Positions 24,563-44,218 of a DNA stretch of 54,166 nt are shown here, in pieces. Positions within the stretch are counted from its first letter, which is position 1; every line of letters begins with the position of its first letter. The DNA comes from a virus. Its lineage: Duplodnaviria > Heunggongvirae > Uroviricota > Caudoviricetes. Position numbers and translations under genes: made by a program. Below the pieces are notes generated by a model. The model was not told where the DNA came from and ran no database searches. It saw only the letters and a program-made list of their open reading frames with translations. The stretch lies in the IMG/VR virus record IMGVR_UViG_2872198387_000006; one strand, given 5' to 3'.

Positions 24563-25647
24563 TTGAGGTGTACTGGCAATAGCGGACACTACCATTTGTT
24601 CTTTTTTTAAGCAGCCATCTGATGATATTTTTCCCTGAAGGCTGCCGGGGAGATATTCCCCAGACGAGAGTGACGACGCTGACGATTGTAGAAAATCTCA
24701 ATGTATTCCCGTATTACTGAGATGGCTTCATCCCGGTTATTAAAACGATAGTGGCTCAGGCTCTCATTTTTCAGCGTTCCCCAGAAGCTTTCCATCGGAG
24801 CGTTGTCGTAACAGTTACCTTTACGCGACATTGATGTTTTCAGACCAGACTGCTCCTGTATGACCCGGTAATCGTATGCGCAGTACTGTGAACCTCGATC
24901 AGAGTGGTGGATTAGCCCGGCAGGTGGGCGCTGGCTCCTGAGCGCCATAAACAGGGCTTTACCTGTCAGCTCTTTTGTCATGCGCTCTCCCATGGCGTAG
25001 CCGACAATTTCACACGTATAAACATCTTTGATGCCAGCGAGGTACAACCATCCCTCCTGTGTGGCAACATACGTCAGGTCCGCCACCCAGACCTGATTTG
25101 GTGCTGTAGGAGCGAACGTCTGGTTCAGCAGATTTGGCGCAACTGGCAGATTGTGGTTCGGGTTCGTAGTCGCTCTGAACTTGCGTTTCTGCTTACAGCG
25201 TAGCCTCAGCTCCTTACGAAGACGTGCCAGTCGGTCACGACCAACGATGATGCCATTCTCTGCCAGCTCCGTCTGGAGCCGCCGGGTTCCATATGTTTCG
25301 CGAGTGCGGATATGTGCCACCTTAATCTCCGGTTTTAGCCGCTCATCACTTTGTTTTCTGTCTGAGGGTTCATGCTGTACCCAGTTGTAATAACCGCTCC
25401 TGGATACACCAAATACCTGACACATCGCTTCAATGGGAAATTGTTGTCGCCATTGTTCGATTAACGCGTATTTTTCAGCGACTCCTGTGCAAAATACGCT
25501 GTTGCTTTTTTTAATATATCTCGCTCAAGGCGAGCTTCATTTAACGCCTTACGCAGTTGCAGAATTTCAGATTCCAGTTCAGCCACCGTGCGGGAACCAG
25601 GAGTACCGAGCCCTTTTCTGGCGGCGGTAACCCATTGTCCTAAAGTG
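24563..25647 (-). mobile_element. IS600 (IS3 family), partial copy 1, truncated within orfA by IS629
   Basis: Terminus TGAGGTGTACTGGCAATAGCGGACACTACC at 24563; orfB intact; orfA end missing. Confidence 0.8.
24607..25425 (-). CDS. IS600 OrfB transposase (DDE integrase domain)
   Basis: 272 aa, near-identical to the other two copies in the window. Confidence 0.85.
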   Translation of the reverse strand: MCQVFGVSRSGYYNWVQHEPSDRKQSDERLKPEIKVAHIRTRETYGTRRLQTELAENGIIVGRDRLARLRKELRLRCKQKRKFRATTNPNHNLPVAPNLLNQTFAPTAPNQVWVADLTYVATQEGWLYLAGIKDVYTCEIVGYAMGERMTKELTGKALFMALRSQRPPAGLIHHSDRGSQYCAYDYRVIQEQSGLKTSMSRKGNCYDNAPMESFWGTLKNESLSHYRFNNRDEAISVIREYIEIFYNRQRRHSRLGNISPAAFREKYHQMAA

Positions 25648-25701
25648 TGAACCGCCCCGGGAATCCTGGAGACTAAACTTCCTGAGAAAGAGGTAAACAG
25701 G

Positions 25702-26024
25702 ATGACTAAAAATACTCGTTTTTCCCCCGAAGTCCGTCAACGGGCAGTCCGTATGGTTCTGGAAAGTCAGGGCGAATATGACTCACAATGGGCGACAATT
25801 TGTTCCATTGCTCCAAAGATTGGCTGTACGCCGGAGACTCTGCGTGTCTGGGGTCGCCAGCATGAGCGGGATACCGGGGGCGGTGATGGAGGGCTCACCA
25901 CCGCTGAACGTCAGCGTCTGAAAGAGCCGGAGCGTGAAAATCGTGAACTGCGCCGCAGTAACGATATCCTTCGCCAGGCTTCCGCTTATTTTGCGAAGGC
26001 GGAGTTCGACCGCCTCTGGAAAAA

Positions 26025-26028
<4 letters not shown>
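25702..26028 (+). CDS. IS629 OrfA
   Basis: 108 aa, [26 protein letters not shown]... Confidence 0.85.
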
Positions 26029-26911
<883 letters not shown>

Positions 26912-26953
26912 GTTCACAGATAAAACACTCTCCAGGAAACCCGGGGCGGTTCA

Positions 26954-28012
26954 GTGCCTTCAGGACAATGGGTTACCGCCGCCAGAAAAGGGCTCGGTAC
27001 TCCTGGTTCCCGCACGGTGGCTGAACTGGAATCTGAAATTCTGCAACTGCGTAAGGCGTTAAATGAAGCTCGCCTTGAGCGCGATATATTAAAAAAATCA
27101 ACAGCGTATTTTGCACAGGAGTCGCTGAAAAATACGCGTTAATCGAACAATGGCGACAACAATTTCCCATTGAAGCGATGTGTCAGGTATTTGGTGTATC
27201 CAGGAGCGGTTATTACAACTGGGTACAGCATGAACCCTCAGACAGAAAACAAAGTGATGAGCGGCTAAAACTGGAGATTAAGGTGGCACATATCCGCACT
27301 CGCGAAACATATGGAACCCGGCGGCTCCAGACGGAGCTGGCAGAGAATGGCATCATCGTTGGTCGTGACCGACTGGCACGTCTTCGTAAGGAGCTGAGGC
27401 TACGCTGTAAGCAGAAACGCAAGTTCAGAGCGACTACGAACCCGAACCACAATCTGCCAGTTGCGCCAAATCTGCTGAACCAGACGTTCGCTCCTACAGC
27501 ACCAAATCAGGTCTGGGTGGCGGACCTGACGTATGTTGCTGGCATCAAAGATGTTTATACGTGCGAAATTGTCGGCTACGCCATGGGAGAGCGCATGACA
27601 AAAGAGCTGACAGGTAAAGCCCTGTTTATGGCGCTCAGGAGCCAGCGCCCACCTGCCGGGCTAATCCACCACTCTGATCGAGGTTCACAGTACTGCGCAT
27701 ACGATTACCGGGTCATACAGGAGCAGTCTGGTCTGAAAACATCAATGTCGCGTAAAGGTAACTGTTACGACAACGCTCCGATGGAAAGCTTCTGGGGAAC
27801 GCTGAAAAATGAGAGCCTGAGCCACTATCGTTTTAATAACCGGGATGAAGCCATCTCAGTAATACGGGAATACATTGAGATTTTCTACAATCGTCAGCGT
27901 CGTCACTCTCGTCTGGGGAATATCTCCCCGGCAGCCTTCAGGGAAAAATATCATCAGATGGCTGCTTAAAAAAAGAACAAATGGTAGTGTCCGCTATTGC
28001 CAGTACACCTCA
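26954..28012 (+). mobile_element. IS600, partial copy 2, inverted relative to copy 1; orfA 5' part absent
   Basis: Begins inside orfA, ends with the IS600 terminus ...GCCAGTACACCTCA at 28012; orfB has a 27-bp in-frame deletion (lacks TQEGWLYLA). Confidence 0.8.
27178..27969 (+). CDS. IS600 OrfB transposase (variant with 9-aa deletion)
   Basis: 263 aa versus 272 aa in copies 1 and 3. Confidence 0.8.
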   Translation: MCQVFGVSRSGYYNWVQHEPSDRKQSDERLKLEIKVAHIRTRETYGTRRLQTELAENGIIVGRDRLARLRKELRLRCKQKRKFRATTNPNHNLPVAPNLLNQTFAPTAPNQVWVADLTYVAGIKDVYTCEIVGYAMGERMTKELTGKALFMALRSQRPPAGLIHHSDRGSQYCAYDYRVIQEQSGLKTSMSRKGNCYDNAPMESFWGTLKNESLSHYRFNNRDEAISVIREYIEIFYNRQRRHSRLGNISPAAFREKYHQMAA

Positions 28013-30598: not shown

Positions 30599-30673
<75 letters not shown>

Positions 30674-30676
30674 ATA

Positions 30677-30752
<76 letters not shown>

Positions 30753-30754
30753 GC

Positions 30755-30831
30755 TGGCCCACCACCGAGGACTCGAACCTCGCACCGTCAACTTAGAAGG
30801 TTGATGCTCTATCCGGATGAGCTAGTGGTGG
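30755..30831 (-). tRNA. tRNA-Arg (anticodon UCU)
   Basis: 77 nt with anticodon loop CTTCTAA and T-arm GGTTCGAGTCC; acceptor stem CCACCAC/GTGGTGG. Confidence 0.75.
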
Positions 30832-30832
30832 T

Positions 30833-30909
30833 TGGTGGCCCTTGCTGGACTTGAACCAGCGACCTGGCGATTATGAGTCGCTCGCTCTGACCAACTGAGC
30901 TAAAGGGCC
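30833..30909 (-). tRNA. tRNA with CAU anticodon, most likely tRNA-Ile2 (lysidine) by resemblance to E. coli ileX; tRNA-Met not excluded
   Basis: 77 nt GGCCCTTTAGCTCAG...ACTCATAATCG...GGGCCACCA. Confidence 0.7.
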
Positions 30910-35222: not shown

Positions 35223-35436
35223 CTCCCAGGCGTTTAAACATTTTTCCGGGCTGAAACGCCACCAGCGGATAACTCAGGGTATGAGTACGTCCCTGAACCT
35301 GGCAGACAACCTTCTGGCTTTCGGTACTGACCAGGCAAACCCGCAGAACGTAGCCGTTGCTGGTGGTGAACCACTGCCCCACACGGGGGCAATGGTTGTA
35401 TCGGTGATACAGGAAATTAACGATGTGGCGGATCAT
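35203..35436 (-). CDS. Hypothetical small phage protein
   Basis: 77-aa ORF between Rha and the initiator; not recognised. Confidence 0.3.
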   Translation of the reverse strand: MIRHIVNFLYHRYNHCPRVGQWFTTSNGYVLRVCLVSTESQKVVCQVQGRTHTLSYPLVAFQPGKMFKRLGGGYASV

Positions 35437-35996
35437 GGGCGCACCTCCTTGTCAGAACCATTCAGCCTGGAATCAACAAGTGCAGCACCAAAAACAGCAT
35501 CACCTACACGGTCGTACAGTTTGCCAGCCAGCGGAGATTCAACGGCCTTAAGCATTGGGTAAAGCTGGCTTGTCCAGATTTGATGGATTTCACGCAAATG
35601 CAGGTATACGCCTCTGGCGTTTTGTGCGACAGATGACATGTCAGCCGCACCAGCTCCTGATAAGCTCCTCTCCATCTGGTTAAAGGCATTGATGTATGCC
35701 TCTTTGAACCGGGCGGCACGTTTACCAGTGAAGCCCATAGCAAGGAAGGCGAAGCCGCCGCGGGTAATTTGGTAGCAGGGAAGTTTGCGAGTACCGCCGT
35801 TGGGCTGGCGTACCAAAATTGATGTCTCCGCAAAATTGCGGGCACAAAACTCTGGAGAACAATCCAAAATGCGGATCTTTTTCAGAACATCGTCATGACG
35901 TTTAGAGAAGAAGTTGGCAACAGCCAGGGATGAAGTAACAGCCTAACCATCAACGATGGCAATTTCAGGTTGAGAGAGGGTTGGGAGAGTAGTCAT
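35433..35996 (-). pseudogene. rha: Rha-family phage regulatory protein, frameshifted near 35940
   Basis: N-terminal MTTLPTLSQPEIAIVDG (from 35996) then, in another frame, ...FSKRHDDVLKKIRIL...GFAFLAMGFTGKRAARFKEAYINAFNQME (Rha signature). Confidence 0.65.
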
Positions 35997-36314
35997 GGTG
36001 ACAGCCCCTATGTTGAATTCAAAGAACTCACCACATGGGACGCCAATCACAGAGGTGGTGAGACGTACAGGGTTGGCGTAACCGGTCAACATAGAACCCG
36101 GCGCATCTTGCGATGTCCCTGCACGCCCCACCATAATTTGGGCGTAGCAATGCTCATGACACGAAAAAACCGCATGAGCGCGGTTATGCTCTATATTGAA
36201 TTTCAGGACGCCAATCCCGGCCCCCGCTTTATAAGGTGCAGAGACAGTGTAACGTCCCGAAATTGCAGAATCAATATATTGTGCAGATATAACGATTTTG
36301 TTATGTTTTGCTGT

Positions 36315-36644
36315 ATGAACTACACTATCGAATACTACAGTGAAGAGGTCCGACTGGAGGTCGATCAGCTTCCATTGAGTATGCGTGCCAGATACCAGCA
36401 TCTTGTTGAACGCATGAAGGTATACGGCAGCAATCTCGGAGAACCTCACACCAGCGCCTTTGGTGACGGGCTTTTCGAACTCAGAATTAAAGGCAACGAT
36501 GGGATCGCGCGTGTTTTTTACTGCACTCTGACAGGGAAACGCATCATCATGCTGCATAGTTTTGTAAAGAAAGCGCAGAAAACACCGCCAGCCGAACGCA
36601 AGAAAGCTGAAACCAGAATGAAGGAGGTTAAGCATGACTGGTAA
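36315..36644 (+). CDS. HigB-like toxin (RelE/ParE superfamily)
   Basis: 109 aa from MNYTIEYY..., immediately upstream of and overlapping an HTH antitoxin gene. Confidence 0.65.
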   Translation: MNYTIEYYSEEVRLEVDQLPLSMRARYQHLVERMKVYGSNLGEPHTSAFGDGLFELRIKGNDGIARVFYCTLTGKRIIMLHSFVKKAQKTPPAERKKAETRMKEVKHDW

Positions 36645-36942
36645 ACGCACTCTCCCCACCATGACACACGACGAAATGGCAGCCAAATGGATGGAAGACC
36701 CGGCTTTTAAAGCAGAATACGACGCTATCGCTGACGAATTCGCACTGCTTGATGAAATGCTGGCAGCACGCAAAGAAGCTGGCTTAACTCAGGCTGAAGT
36801 TGCCGAGCGAATGGGAACAAAAGCGACCGCGATCACCAGAATGGAAAGTAATCTCGCATCAGGTATCAGCGGCCCATCATTTGCCACACTAAAAAAATTC
36901 GCCCGCGCTACTGGAAAAAAACTCCAGATCCGCTTCGTTTAA
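36634..36942 (+). CDS. HigA-like antitoxin (XRE-family helix-turn-helix)
   Basis: 102 aa with HTH ...GLTQAEVAERMGTKATAITRME... Confidence 0.7.
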   Translation: MTGKRTLPTMTHDEMAAKWMEDPAFKAEYDAIADEFALLDEMLAARKEAGLTQAEVAERMGTKATAITRMESNLASGISGPSFATLKKFARATGKKLQIRFV

Positions 36943-37156
36943 CCACACCGCGCCGTCATTCTGGCGGCGCACCGGATAAATAGTCATTTCCTCGCACGAT
37001 GTCTTAGCCACCGGATATCCCACAGGTGAGTCGTGTAGTTGAAGGTTTTTACGTCAGATTCTTTTGGGATTGGCTTGCGTTTATTTCTGGAGCGTTTCGT
37101 TGGAAGGTATTTGCAGTTTTCGCAGATGATGTCGGTGAAACTTCGTCGATGTCGCC

Positions 37157-37567
37157 TCATTCATACCTCCTGTCGGTAAATCTGACACCCTGACCAATAG
37201 CCCAGGCTGTTGTGTACTCGATCAGACTTGCCATGCGCTTCACGCTCATCTGCGCGCTGCTTTCGCGAATGTTGACGCATTCTCCTTCAAGGCCGGGCAA
37301 AACATCAGCTTCCTGTTTTGTTGCCACTGCATGACCGCTGATCAACAAAACCTTCCATTGTTCTGGTTTTAACCATTTGCCGCACCATTGAACCTGACGA
37401 GCGATATCCGCCAGCATCGCGTGAAATTTTGCGTTCTGGTCAAGATTTCGCTTGTAGTCAGTAATGCGGATGGTGACTGGCTTGTCTTTATCGAGAGGAG
37501 TTGAGAGGATGGCATTTATTGCGGCTTGCTGTTGTTGCTTAGTTCGGAGGAAGATTGTTTGCTTCAT
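37157..37567 (-). CDS. ninB: NinB recombination protein
   Basis: 136 aa recognised as NinB-like (…[27 protein letters not shown]…). Confidence 0.75.
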
Positions 37568-37916: not shown

Positions 37917-38108
37917 TTAATACTCCGTCACGTTTTCCTGTCGCCACGCCTCGTCATATTCCGATTTCGGCATATTGGCGATGTAGCTATATGGCGATCC
38001 TGATTCAAGTTGCAGGAACTGGTGCGATTGCTCGTCAAGGAACAACGGAACACCACCTTCCCAACCTTCGCCGTTACGTTGTTTTTCAAGCATCAAAACA
38101 GATGCCGG
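37917..38108 (-). CDS. Hypothetical phage protein, 5' end replaced by IS911
   Basis: 68-aa ORF whose first codons lie inside the IS911 terminus. Confidence 0.3.
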   Translation of the reverse strand, partial: PASVLMLEKQRNGEGWEGGVPLFLDEQSHQFLQLESGSPYSYIANMPKSEYDEAWRQENVTEY

Positions 38109-38116
38109 TGAAGTGG

Positions 38117-39285
<1,169 letters not shown>

Positions 39286-40141
39286 TGGAGCACCTGTGTT
39301 GTTCTGAGGTGAGCATATCACCTCTGTTCAGGTGGCCAAATTCAGTGTGCCACTTCAGATGGCAATGGAGAGCGTGACCTCAATGACTTCTACTCTGACA
39401 TCCAAACCGACGCTGAATCCGGCTTTACGTAGTTTCTGGACTATGCGGGCACGTAACAAAGTGCTTTATGGTGGTCGGTCATCGTCAAAATCATGGGATG
39501 CCGCTGGCATTGCCATATTTCTGTCGAATAAATACACCCTGCGTTTTTGTTGTGCCCGTCAGATCCAGAATAAAATCGAAGAGTCGGTGTATACCCTGCT
39601 CAAAATTCAGATAGACAGGTTTGGTCTGCGGCACCGTTTCCGTATTCTGAACAACAAAATCATTAACCGGGTTACTGGCTCGGAATTTGTTTTTTATGGA
39701 TTATGGCGCAACATCGAAGAAATTAAGTCACTGGAGGGGATCGATATGTTGTGGCTGGAAGAAGCCCACGCACTGACGGAATACCAGTGGAAAATTCTGG
39801 AGCCAACGATCCGTAAAGAGGGTTCGGAATGCTGGTTCATATTCAACCCCGGACTTGTTACTGATTTCGTCTGGCGCAACTTCGTTGTTGATCCGCCCGA
39901 AGGCACTCTCATCCGCAAAATTAACTATGACGAAAATCCGTTTCTGTCTGACACCATGCTTAAGGTTATCGACGCGGCGCGACGCCGTGATCCGGATGGT
40001 TTTAAACATGTGTATGAGGGCGTTCCGGAGTCTGATGATGATGCGGCAATTAGACTGGCCCCCTGAATCTCCAGACAACCAGTATCACTTAAATAAGTGA
40101 TAGTCTTAATACTAGTTTTTAGACTAGTCATTGGAGAACAG

Positions 40142-40507
40142 ATGATTGATGTCTTAGGGCCGGAGAAACGCAGACGGCGTACCACACAGGAAAAGATCGC
40201 AATTGTTCAGCAGAGCTTTGAACCGGGGATGACGGTCTCCCTCGTTGCCCGGCAACATGGTGTAGCAGCCAGCCAGTTATTTCTCTGGCGTAAGCAATAC
40301 CAGGAAGGAAGTCTTACTGCTGTGGCCGCCGGAGAACAGGTTGTTCCTGCCTCTGAACTTGCTGCCGCCATGAAGCAGATTAAAGAACTCCAGCGCCTGC
40401 TCGGCAAGAAAACGATGGAAAATGAACTCCTCAAAGAAGCCGTTGAATATGGACGGGCAAAAAAGTGGATAGCGCACGCGCCCTTATTGCCCGGGGATGG
40501 GGAGTAA
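40142..40507 (+). CDS. insC: IS2 InsC (OrfA)
   Basis: Start at [18 protein letters not shown]. Confidence 0.85.
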
Positions 40508-41370
40508 GCTTAGTCAGCCGTTGTCTCCGGGTGTCGCGTGCGCAGTTGCACGTCATTCTCAGACGAACCGATGACTGGATGGATGGCCGCCGCAGTCGTC
40601 ACACTGATGATACGGATGTGCTTCTCCGTATACACCATGTTATCGGAGAGCTGCCCACGTATGGTTATCGTCGGGTATGGGCGCTGCTTCGCAGACAGGC
40701 AGAACTTGATGGTATGCCTGCGATCAATGCCAAACGTGTTTACCGGCTCATGCGCCAGAATGCGCTGTTGCTTGAGCGAAAACCTGCTGTACCGCCATCG
40801 AAACGGGCACATACAGGCAGAGTGGCCGTGAAAGAAAGCAATCAGCGATGGTGCTCTGACGGGTTCGAGTTCTGCTGTGATAACGGAGAGAGACTGCGTG
40901 TCACGTTCGCGCTGGACTGCTGTGATCGTGAGGCACTGCACTGGGCGGTGACTACCGGCGGCTTCAACAGTGAAACAGTACAGGACGTCATGCTGGGAGC
41001 GGTGGAACGCCGCTTCGGCAACGATCTTCCGTCGTCTCCAGTGGAGTGGCTGACGGATAATGGTTCATGCTACCGGGCTAATGAAACACGCCAGTTCGCC
41101 CGGATGTTGGGACTTGAACCGAAGAACACGGCGGTGCGGAGTCCGGAGAGTAACGGAATAGCAGAGAGCTTCGTGAAAACGATAAAGCGTGACTACATCA
41201 GTATCATGCCCAAACCAGACGGGTTAACGGCAGCAAAGAACCTTGCAGAGGCGTTCGAGCATTATAACGAATGGCATCCGCATAGTGCGCTGGGTTATCG
41301 CTCGCCACGGGAATATCTGCGGCAGCGGGCTTGTAATGGGTTAAGTGATAACAGATGTCTGGAAATATAG
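40465..41370 (+). CDS. insD: IS2 InsD (OrfB transposase)
   Basis: 301 aa; produced as an InsCD fusion by frameshifting in IS2. Confidence 0.85.
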
Positions 41371-42114: not shown

Positions 42115-43581
42115 ATGGCACGAAACAAACAAGCCCTGCGGCGAACTGTGCAGGCCACAGCTGATGGTTATGAGAATTTTATTGCCCGAGTAGGGATGCA
42201 GACACCTAACCAGCACTCAGCATCCACCTACCGGGCTAATTTCACCAGTCGTAACCGCATGCTGGTGGAATGGTCCTATCGTTCATCCTGGATCATCGGC
42301 GAAGCAGTCGATGCTATCCCGGATGATATGACCCGCAAAGGCATTCGCATCACTTCGGAAATTGATGCAAAAGATCGTGGCATTCTCGAATCACAACTGG
42401 ATGAGTTGCAAATCTGGGATGCGCTGAATGACGTGCTGAAATGGTCGCGCCTCTACGGCGGCGCGGTGGGTTTCATCATGATTGAGGGGCAGGCACCAAT
42501 GACCCCGCTGCGACCCGAAACCATCGGTAAGGGCAAGTTTAAGGGGATTCTCCCGCTCGACCGCTGGATGGTCGACCCGGCACTGACCCGCCGCATTAAA
42601 GATATGGGGCCGGACCTGGGTAAACCTGAGTTTTACGATGTGGTGACCACAGCAACGGGAATTCCTGCCTGGCGCATTCATCACAGTCGCCTGATTCGCT
42701 TTGATGGCGTCACGTTGCCATTTCAGCAGAAGATGACCGAGAACGAATGGGGAATGTCGGTTGTAGAGCGTATCTGGGATCGTCTTACCGCGTTCGACAG
42801 CGCTACTGTCGGCGCGGCGCAGCTGGTCTACAAGGCGCATTTGCGTACCTACAGCGTGGAGAAGCTACGCGAGCTTATCGCACTTGGTGGTCCTGCGTAT
42901 GAAGCGTTGCTGAAGAATATCGACCTGATTCGACAGTTCCAGAGTAATGAAGGCATGACGCTCATGGACTCGCGGGATAAGTTTGAAACCCATCAGTACA
43001 GCTTCAGTGGTCTGGATGACATCCTTTCGCAGTTTGCAGAACAGATTAGTGGCGCTGTTGGTATCCCACTGGTGCGGTTGTTCGGACAGTCCCCGAAAGG
43101 ATTTTCTACCGGTGATGCAGACCTTGCCAACTATTACGATCGCATCAGTTCGTTGCAGGAGAGGCGTTTACGTCTTCCGGTGCGGCGGATACTGGACATC
43201 ATGCATCGTTCGGAACTTGGCAAGCCGCTGCCGGACGATTTCACGTTTGAGTTTAACCCGCTCTGGCAAATGTCTGATGTCGATCGCTCAACGGTGGCGT
43301 TAAACACCACCAACGCAATCAGTACGGCGCTGGGTGATGGTCTGATGACACTGAAAGCCGCTATGACTGATTTGCGAGAAAATTCTGACGTAACCGGCAT
43401 AGGGGCATCCATTACCAACGAGGACATCGAGAATGCCGAAGATGAAGCGCCGCCCGGCATCGGCGAACCTGATGACGAACCGCAGGAGCCGTCAGGCGGA
43501 AATCCGGTATCGAACCAGCCTACGCAGGATAGCGAGGGCGGTCGGAGACATCGTAAATGGTCGCTACGATGGTTCAAATGA
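42115..43581 (+). CDS. Portal protein (Mu gp29-like family)
   Basis: 488 aa directly after the large terminase and before a MuF-like gene. Confidence 0.7.
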   Translation: MARNKQALRRTVQATADGYENFIARVGMQTPNQHSASTYRANFTSRNRMLVEWSYRSSWIIGEAVDAIPDDMTRKGIRITSEIDAKDRGILESQLDELQIWDALNDVLKWSRLYGGAVGFIMIEGQAPMTPLRPETIGKGKFKGILPLDRWMVDPALTRRIKDMGPDLGKPEFYDVVTTATGIPAWRIHHSRLIRFDGVTLPFQQKMTENEWGMSVVERIWDRLTAFDSATVGAAQLVYKAHLRTYSVEKLRELIALGGPAYEALLKNIDLIRQFQSNEGMTLMDSRDKFETHQYSFSGLDDILSQFAEQISGAVGIPLVRLFGQSPKGFSTGDADLANYYDRISSLQERRLRLPVRRILDIMHRSELGKPLPDDFTFEFNPLWQMSDVDRSTVALNTTNAISTALGDGLMTLKAAMTDLRENSDVTGIGASITNEDIENAEDEAPPGIGEPDDEPQEPSGGNPVSNQPTQDSEGGRRHRKWSLRWFK

Positions 43582-44215
43582 CAGTATCACGGAAATTATT
43601 GCGGCGCTGGAGCGTTACAGTGAAATCATCACCCCCTGGGCGACAAAGGTCGCGGAAAACTTTACTGCGGACCTAACCCGGCAGAACGAGAAAGTTTGGC
43701 GGCAACACAGCAAGAACATCAGTCGCGAGCTCCGCAATCTTGTGGAAAGCGCTCCTGTGGGCCAGGTGATGCAATCCATCATCGCCGAACAGGTCAAGTA
43801 CATCAAATCTCTGCCTCTCGAGGCCGCAGACAGGGTGTACGACATCCAGAACAAAGCGATAGAGGCTGTTGTCACCGGTGGTCGGGCGGAGCAGTTTGCT
43901 AAAGAGATTGCATCTACCGGCGATGTTGCTAAGTCTAGGGCCGATCTGATTGCCCGAACGGAACTGGGAAGAGCAACGGGCGCGCTGGATATGGCCCGAG
44001 CGATAGCTATTGGCTCGGATGGTTATATTTGGCGTACAGCCGATGATGGCGATGTCCGAGATTCCCACGATCACATGAAAGGTAAATTCGTCCGCTGGGA
44101 TTCACCTCCAACTTTGGACGGCATGACCGGCCACGCGGGCGAGCTGCCAAACTGCCGCTGCTATAAAGAGATCGTGTTTGTTCGCGTTCCATTCGCAATG
44201 AAAAGGGCAGCATAA
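43433..44215 (+). CDS. Head morphogenesis protein, Mu F-like; true start probably downstream of 43433
   Basis: C-terminal half has MuF-like character (…ARTELGRATGALDMARAIAIGSDGYIWRTADDGDVRDSHDHMKGKF…). Confidence 0.65.
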   Translation: MPKMKRRPASANLMTNRRSRQAEIRYRTSLRRIARAVGDIVNGRYDGSNDSITEIIAALERYSEIITPWATKVAENFTADLTRQNEKVWRQHSKNISRELRNLVESAPVGQVMQSIIAEQVKYIKSLPLEAADRVYDIQNKAIEAVVTGGRAEQFAKEIASTGDVAKSRADLIARTELGRATGALDMARAIAIGSDGYIWRTADDGDVRDSHDHMKGKFVRWDSPPTLDGMTGHAGELPNCRCYKEIVFVRVPFAMKRAA

Positions 44216-44218
44216 CCC

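Follow-up and report, generated by a model that had tools for sequence, protein, structure and literature searches.

A probable gp49-family toxin-antitoxin cassette on the strand opposite its neighbours in a defective lambdoid prophage of Shigella flexneri

The 54,166-nucleotide (nt) stretch of viral DNA analysed here in full (IMG/VR record IMGVR_UViG_2872198387_000006, hereafter the window) carries at positions 36315 to 36942 two overlapping genes that very probably constitute a type II toxin-antitoxin (TA) cassette of the gp49 (Tad-Ata/HigBA-like) family, borne as an opposite-strand moron by a defective prophage. The pair is an ordinary member of a well-known family and has already been annotated automatically. 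RefSeq names it a type II TA RelE/ParE-family toxin with a helix-turn-helix (HTH) protein, the annotation of Shigella flexneri already calls this exact toxin protein a type II TA toxin, and the 97% identical copies in Escherichia coli are named likewise. The toxin is best read as a predicted ribosome-dependent mRNA endonuclease. The sole feature here that may be new is the layout of the control region, in which an operator-like palindrome lies over the -10 element and the toxin message appears to lack a leader.

The preliminary description of this DNA had given a gene of 109 amino acids (aa) followed, with an 11-bp overlap, by a gene of 102 aa, both on the strand opposite to the flanking phage genes. 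The list of open reading frames (ORFs) and the raw sequence agree with these coordinates exactly: both genes lie on the plus strand and share 11 nt (36634-36644), and their neighbours lie on the minus strand.

36315 to 36644, plus strand: toxin gene, 109 aa, ATG at 36315, stop codon 36642-36644
36634 to 36942, plus strand: antitoxin gene, 102 aa, ATG at 36634, stop codon 36940-36942

Such a toxin-first operon with a small overlapping HTH gene has the order of the type II reverse-order systems. The 109-aa start is taken as real because 109-111 aa is the modal toxin length among 120 homologues, residues 1-20 are conserved among homologues and the Pfam match to PF05973 starts at residue 15. A 224-aa frame with a TTG start, running from 35970, is an artefact of the ORF caller, and the ATG start of the 109-aa frame is preferred to it. 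Shorter toxins in RefSeq and GenBank (87 aa in phage POCJ13, 76 aa in TUM9812) are start-site artefacts as well, full 109-codon ATG frames being present in both, and the long 'Rha/ash family' calls that overlap the toxin start in relatives are probably annotation artefacts. A generic promoter scan found no promoter-like site inside the toxin gene.

The preliminary description had classed the first gene as a RelE/ParE-superfamily toxin and had asked for profile searches, which were run and, together with a RelE-like predicted fold, uphold that assignment. The toxin matches PF05973 (gp49) with 88.4 bits against a cutoff of 23.9 (E=3.2e-25) over profile positions 2-90 of 90; this is its sole Pfam match at E<=0.01, and the same family is present in all 120 homologues listed. 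The canonical HigB families PF05015 and PF09907 gave no Pfam match to the toxin at E<=0.01, which rules out canonical HigB membership; the ParE family PF05016 gave no Pfam match either, and the NCBIfam model TIGR02683 (upstrm_HI1419 RelE/ParE toxin) scored 19.8 bits, below its cutoff of 62.85. The earlier label 'HigBA-like' is apt as regards the toxin-first order with an HTH antitoxin, but since the toxin belongs to the gp49/Tad family PF05973 and does not match PF05015, the family of Rts1 HigB, it applies in a broad sense only.

Structural comparison leads to the same group of toxins. A single-sequence search of the PDB matched the toxin to Streptococcus pneumoniae HigB (6af3), and a profile of its homologues also reached Mycobacterium tuberculosis HigB1 (7nbu, 7awk). 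The AlphaFold (AF2) model, built on an alignment of 95 homologues, has a predicted local distance difference test (pLDDT) score of 93.4 and predicted strands at residues 46-50, 53-60, 63-72 and 76-85 with a helix at 92-108. It displays a RelE-like fold, with helices packed against a four-stranded antiparallel sheet, and the long C-terminal helix that is a trait of gp49-like toxins (PMC9098466). Its best Foldseek matches are 6af4/6af3, with template modelling (TM) scores of 0.72-0.76, and 7awk/7nbu (0.73-0.75), followed by RelE structures (0.54-0.56). ParE structures rank 17th or lower (TM 0.36-0.41, probability 0.25-0.69), which, together with the missing PF05016 match, rules out ParE membership.

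Seven toxin residues, E55, R57, R66, F83, K85, Q88 and K89, align with positions known to matter for the activity of HigB or HigB1. Mutation of R68, R73, F90 or K92 in S. pneumoniae HigB (PMC7984235), which align with R57, R66, F83 and K85, lowers activity or toxicity, and so does mutation of E66, R68, R77, F93, K95, Q98 or K99 in M. tuberculosis HigB1 (PMC9098466), which align with all seven in the order given. E55, R57, R66, F83 and K85 are invariant among the 95 homologues, K89 is kept in at least 90% of them and Q88 is more variable. According to a 2025 survey, the toxins of PF05973 are ribosome-dependent mRNases and their genes precede the antitoxin genes (PMC11980606). PADLOC also matched toxin residues 49-99 to the C-terminal effector domain of Menshen NsnC (E=5e-9, partial), which indicates that defence systems, too, employ the gp49 RNase domain; a Menshen system at the locus was rejected, as NsnC is matched in part only and NsnA and NsnB are absent.

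The second gene had been described as a 102-aa XRE-HTH antitoxin, and this assignment also stands. Its product matches HTH_3 in Pfam at residues 44-98 (E=3e-11), and its best PDB sequence match, HigA of 6af3, comes from the complex whose HigB chain is the best match to the toxin. The adjacency of the two genes was followed through 88 loci that carry toxin homologues at 59-97% identity and come from E. coli, Shigella phages, Edwardsiella, Photorhabdus, many Betaproteobacteria and Nitrospirota. An antitoxin homologue lies directly 3' of the toxin in 86 of them, the two exceptions being contig ends. The AF2 model of the antitoxin (pLDDT 86) has predicted helices at residues 12-20, 23-49, 53-60, 64-76 and 83-93. 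The HTH part of the model matches the folds of HipB, HigA2 and C-proteins, and the two N-terminal helices that precede the XRE helix-turn-helix domain are predicted to be the toxin-binding part. The protein ends directly after the HTH domain, at residue 102, without a C-terminal chaperone-addiction extension.

Both genes are real and not chance ORFs, given their matches to Gp49 (E=3e-25) and HTH_3 (E=3e-11) and the ratio of nonsynonymous to synonymous substitution rates (dN/dS), which in pairwise comparison with five relatives is 0.03-0.10 for both genes. Strong purifying selection acts on the two of them, and the same 11-nt overlap recurs in distant bacteria, namely in Glaciimonas and a metagenomic contig. 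Few E. coli strains have the cassette, which was found in 31 of 5,426 complete genomes and in every case on the chromosome; it is present also in the Shiga toxin (Stx) phages POCJ13 and 75/02 Stx. No near-identical copy was found in PLSDB, so that a plasmid origin of this variant is rejected.

The sequence itself and the comparison of the 88 loci also brought out the following signals.

36279 to 36284, plus strand: candidate -35 element TTGTGC, its TTG 17 nt 5' of the -10 element, from the comparative alignment
36289 to 36304, no strand assigned: operator-like palindrome ATAACG-ATTT-TGTTAT with the core TAAC-N6-GTTA, a predicted site for an HTH dimer
36302 to 36307, plus strand: candidate -10 element TATGTT, overlapping the right arm of the palindrome
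36621 to 36628, plus strand: Shine-Dalgarno (SD) sequence of the antitoxin, AAGGAGGT, inside the toxin 3' codons M-K-E-V-K

A block of about 40 bp directly 5' of the toxin ATG is common to relatives whose upstream flanks are otherwise unrelated, and the TTG of the -35 element forms its left edge. The spacer between the two hexamers is 17 nt here, and the palindrome spans both the spacer and the -10 element. In 78 of the 88 loci, from Beta- and Gammaproteobacteria and Nitrospirota, the core TAAC-N6-GTTA lies no more than 45 nt from the toxin start, so that the architecture extends across these groups. Among these 78, a TTG stands 16-18 nt 5' of the -10 element in 61 and exactly 17 nt from it in 53, and the core palindrome ends 10-11 nt 5' of the start codon in 70; homologues read TATTAT, TACTAT, TATCAT or TATAAT at the -10 position. 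Elsewhere in the 956 kb of locus sequence the core occurs six more times, and the exact form ATAAC-N6-GTTAT has a single copy in the window, at the cassette promoter. Some loci without the exact core have symmetric variants, TACC..GGTA (L028 and L080) and TAGC..GCTA (L052); because these keep the symmetry, the pattern is the one expected of a site bound by a protein dimer. The position of the palindrome over the -10 element is, at the level of sequence, that of an autoregulatory operator. The generic promoter scan missed this promoter because its hexamers match 7 of 12 consensus positions only. A site that the scan did report, at 36108-36137, is at chance level; the cassette promoter came from the comparative alignment.

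The gap between the -10 element and the toxin ATG is 7 nt (36308-36314) and contains no SD sequence. Sigma-70 transcripts usually begin about 7 nt 3' of the -10 hexamer. With a start codon 6-7 nt after the -10 element, the transcript should begin at the toxin AUG or 1 nt before it, so that the toxin cistron would be leaderless; the cassette promoter, in other words, predicts a leaderless toxin message. The SD sequence AAGGAGGT, by comparison, stands 5 nt 5' of the antitoxin ATG at 36634. Of 86 loci, 59 have a strict SD motif ahead of the antitoxin, and in none of those 59 does the toxin have one. The gp49 gene of phage N15 has an ordinary AGGAGG ribosome-binding site (RBS) and no TAAC-N6-GTTA palindrome at its start, which makes the predicted leaderless layout a property of the 109-aa subfamily and not of all gp49 toxins. 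We tentatively propose, at somewhat less than even chances, that this subfamily has a built-in solution to the dosage problem, made up of a leaderless toxin, an antitoxin with a strong internal SD sequence and an operator over the -10 element.

The proposed working of the cassette is as follows. A weak sigma-70 promoter (-35 at 36279, -10 at 36302) would make one bicistronic mRNA that begins at or beside the toxin AUG, and the leaderless toxin cistron would be poorly translated. In combination with the strong AAGGAGGT RBS of the antitoxin, this is proposed to yield an excess of antitoxin from a toxin-first operon. An antitoxin dimer would bind ATAACG-N4-TGTTAT over the -10 element and repress the operon, possibly with the toxin as co-repressor, and the N-terminal helices of the antitoxin would bind and neutralise the toxin, as in 6AF3. 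Should the antitoxin supply fail, through proteolysis, loss of the element or shut-off in phage infection, free toxin would enter the ribosomal A site and cleave mRNA as HigB1 does, and translation and growth would stop. Roles in stabilisation or abortive infection are plausible by analogy only.

The host prophage is a defective lambdoid element of S. flexneri, riddled with insertion sequences (IS). The exact toxin sequence is that of an S. flexneri protein, and an IpaH-type effector gene (1060-2823, plus strand, 587 aa, with LRR_TTSS and NEL E3 ligase domains), which lies beside prophage tail-fibre genes, marks the window as Shigella or enteroinvasive E. coli (EIEC). The surroundings of the cassette contain the following features.

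35433 to 36134, minus strand: Ash/Rha gene, Ash part 35946-36134, Rha part 35433-35867
36051 to 36138, minus strand: C4 antisense RNA, Rfam 74.8 bits, gathering score 45
36163 to 36239, minus strand: isrK Hfq-binding RNA, Rfam 58.1 bits, gathering score 50
36950 to 36970, no strand assigned: GC-rich hairpin within the 42 bp that separate the antitoxin stop codon from the convergent ninE stop codon
36984 to 37160, minus strand: NinE, the next gene to the right, 42 bp from the antitoxin
37157 to 37567, minus strand: NinB, to the right of NinE

The cassette had been placed in the prophage early region, between Rha and ninB. Phage genes do flank the pair, but the prophage is defective and IS-riddled and has no intact early region; the next gene to the right is NinE, with NinB after it, and the 'Rha' to the left is an Ash/Rha pseudogene behind IsrK and C4. 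The Ash/Rha gene is broken by a TAG in frame at 35943-35945, a codon that reads CAG in E. coli CFSAN029787, and is on this account a pseudogene or is re-initiated at TTG 35867. IsrK and C4 before the Ash/Rha gene resemble an immI-type antirepressor control region. A reading of the sequence also places a candidate isrK promoter on the minus strand (-35 at 36275-36270, -10 at 36252-36247); it diverges from the cassette promoter, and 3 bp separate the -35 elements of the two. An apparent minus-strand terminator at 36185-36168 is the 3' end of the IsrK RNA match. Matches to sRNA-Xcc1 (RF02221) in Edwardsiella (L012, 2086-2171), Glaciimonas (L010, 4712-4799) and POCJ13 (L002, 3991-4074) lie near the cassette or directly 5' of a Rha gene, and hint at a C4-like role there.

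IsrK and C4 adjoin the cassette in RMDEC465, TUM9812, A34 and phage PhiR5_2, and CFSAN029787 has both RNAs without the cassette. A mosaic boundary runs just 5' of the cassette. Homology to the CFSAN029787 prophage (replication genes, Rha, IsrK/C4) stops at about 36278, and homology to the 97%-identical RMDEC465 type (cassette, ninE, ninB) starts at 36287, at the cassette -35 element. In CFSAN029787 the slot of the cassette, beside the IsrK-C4-Rha module, is occupied by another gene on the opposite strand, which makes a moron insertion or a recombination hot-spot likely. On the other side of the cassette, the hairpin at 36950-36970 folds as RNA with -18.5 kcal/mol (z = -3.15 against shuffles). 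It is followed by a U-run on neither strand and is for this reason not a canonical intrinsic terminator; it might act as a transcription or stability barrier.

An IS911-like element (38117-39321, minus strand) cuts the phage just right of NinB and seems to truncate a replication-protein gene; a 68-aa ORF at 37917-38123 has no Pfam match. IS3-family transposase copies lie at 24607-27969, 38117-39321, 40097-41370 and 47169-47987, and an ALIL frameshift pseudoknot at 25983-26099. After IS911 come a terminase fragment from another phage (39332-40066) and Mu-like remnants (42115-50021), which include a Mu-type portal (42115-43581), a DUF2213 protein (44219-45439) and a Mu transposase (48387-50021, minus strand). 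A gene for a DcuC-type C4-dicarboxylate carrier follows the Mu remnants (51633-53120, minus strand). Four phage-borne tRNA genes (30599-30909, minus strand) lie between the Q antiterminator and the lysis genes, namely Gly-UCC, Thr-UGU, Arg-UCU and one with a CAU anticodon, called Met here and Ile in related E. coli prophages.

Other explanations of the pair were weighed against an active TA cassette. It could be a decaying or attenuated remnant, which we consider improbable, in which the toxin is weakened by the substitution T87A and the HTH protein is kept mainly for a role in transcription control or, as an 'anti-addiction' antitoxin, for protection from related incoming cassettes. T87A (codon 87, 36573-36575) is the single difference between the toxin of the window and the commoner S. 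flexneri allele. Alanine is in the minority at this position in S. flexneri contigs (33 with A87 versus 365 with T87), and the position, which lies between the catalytic-type K85 and Q88, is near-invariant, with T or S in 108 of 120 homologues. The surrounding prophage is moreover degraded, with the nonsense codon in Ash/Rha and several IS insertions, and relatives provide instances of damaged toxins: in phage PhiR5_2 (L008, 2807-3136) the full-length toxin frame has ATA as its start codon next to an intact antitoxin, GenBank annotating a 76-aa 'HigB', and 12 of the 31 E. coli genomes match at the DNA level only from about toxin codon 66 onward. In the window, however, both ORFs, the promoter, the palindrome and the SD sequence are intact, the low dN/dS extends to the toxin, and the residues aligned with proven catalytic positions are all present. 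Active M. tuberculosis HigB1 itself carries Q97 at the equivalent of T87, so that a hydroxyl group is not essential there.

The other two alternatives concern what the proteins do. A phage regulatory unit, in which the IsrK/C4/antirepressor module would be under the control of the HTH protein and the gp49-like protein would be a cofactor without toxicity, has a very small probability. The back-to-back arrangement of the cassette promoter with the predicted isrK promoter would suit it, as would the adjacency of IsrK and C4 in four other phages or prophages and the PHROGs labels, 'unknown function' for the toxin family and 'transcriptional regulator' for its partner. The same pair and palindrome nevertheless occur in loci that are non-phage or free of IsrK/C4 (metagenomic, Glaciimonas and phage POCJ13), and the one palindrome of the window belongs to the cassette's own promoter. 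As the slot next to the IsrK-C4-Rha module of CFSAN029787 is filled by another gene, the adjacency looks like a shared insertion hot-spot. Slighter still is the probability that the toxin is a ParE-like DNA-gyrase poison and not an mRNA endonuclease. The generic RefSeq name 'RelE/ParE family toxin' and the occurrence of both activities on one fold leave room for it, but Foldseek ranks HigB, HigB1 and RelE far above ParE, Pfam gives PF05973 and not PF05016, the RelE-type basic residues are conserved, and the PF05973 members studied so far are ribosome-dependent mRNases (PMC9098466, PMC11980606).

Several points also weigh directly against an active cassette that works in the way proposed. The exchange T87A lies in the K85-Q88-K89 loop and could, by its position, attenuate the toxin. 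The antitoxin model is a monomer prediction, and as a whole it superposes poorly on the S. pneumoniae antitoxin (TM 0.46, root-mean-square deviation 6.4 A). The literature searched contained no experiment on the 109-aa subfamily and no paper on the cassette. As regards the leaderless step, 28 of the 88 homologues start with GTG, a codon that serves poorly as a leaderless start where translation is of the E. coli type, and the promoter hexamers of the window are weak.

As a gene pair, the type II cassette proposed here is of little weight, being one more gp49-type prophage TA cassette. The prophage, which also bears an IpaH effector gene, has decayed heavily, and the cassette is among the few of its units that are still intact; this would fit selfish retention or host benefit, and the cassette may help to retain, or may defend, this defective S. 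flexneri prophage with its ipaH gene. Natural material on toxin attenuation is offered by T87A and by the start-codon variants found among relatives. How reverse-order TA operons set the ratio of toxin to antitoxin has been called unknown (PMC5906591), and the layout described here amounts to a testable proposal for antitoxin excess in such operons. If it holds, toxin output would be tied to conditions that favour leaderless translation.

Among known systems, the gp49/gp48 pair of phage N15 and Tad-Ata of Paracoccus (Dziewit et al. 2007) are cited as founding examples of the family (PMC2701414, PMC5906591). Stabilising activity has been shown for N15. The Tad-Ata type combines a COG4679 toxin with a COG5606/XRE antitoxin, and its Paracoccus example is on pAMI2. 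Like gp49/gp48, the pair in the window consists of a PF05973 toxin gene followed by an overlapping XRE-HTH antitoxin gene on a temperate enterobacterial phage, with 45% identity between the toxins (gp49) and 38% between the antitoxins (gp48). Unlike N15, which is a linear plasmid-prophage, the window holds a member of a distinct 109-aa subfamily in a lambdoid nin-region slot.

For both proteins the best solved-structure match by sequence is HigBA of S. pneumoniae (6AF3/6AF4). The toxins share the fold (TM 0.75), the long C-terminal helix and the four aligned residues given above, and in HigA, too, binding helices at the N-terminus precede the HTH domain (PMC7984235). The two systems differ in that identity is about 19% in the structural alignment, the hosts belong to different phyla and the operator sequences are unrelated. 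HigB1 of M. tuberculosis (Rv1955; 7AWK, 7NBU), the toxin of a toxin-antitoxin-chaperone (TAC) system, is gp49-like too, with a fold TM of 0.73-0.75 and all seven aligned residues. It binds the A site and cleaves within codons in a ribosome-dependent manner (PMC9098466), and serves here as the mechanistic template, its codon preference not being transferable to the toxin of the window. HigB1 is part of a three-gene system, whereas no SecB-like gene follows the antitoxin here; a TAC system is excluded, as what comes next is ninE in the opposite orientation.

The plasmid-borne HigBA2 of Acinetobacter baumannii has a gp49-domain toxin with RNase activity and reverse gene order, and HigBA-Ab is reported to be only about 20% identical to validated Tad-type gp49 toxins. 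Autorepression by the antitoxin with the toxin as co-repressor, as well as plasmid stabilisation, have been shown for it by experiment, and no leaderless arrangement is described (PMC5906591); the pair in the window, in contrast, is prophage-borne. HigBA of Rts1/Proteus vulgaris and of E. coli K-12 share with it the toxin-first order and the XRE-HTH antitoxin, and combine a ribosome-dependent mRNase with palindromic promoter operators (PMC11980606). Their HigB toxins belong to PF05015 and PF09907 and the toxin of the window to PF05973, so that the name 'HigB' would apply to it by analogy only. As to function, Gp49-type modules stabilise plasmids (PMC5906591), and defence against phage is known from TAC systems with HigBA-type units (bioRxiv 10.1101/2024.02.24.581848; PMC11980606).

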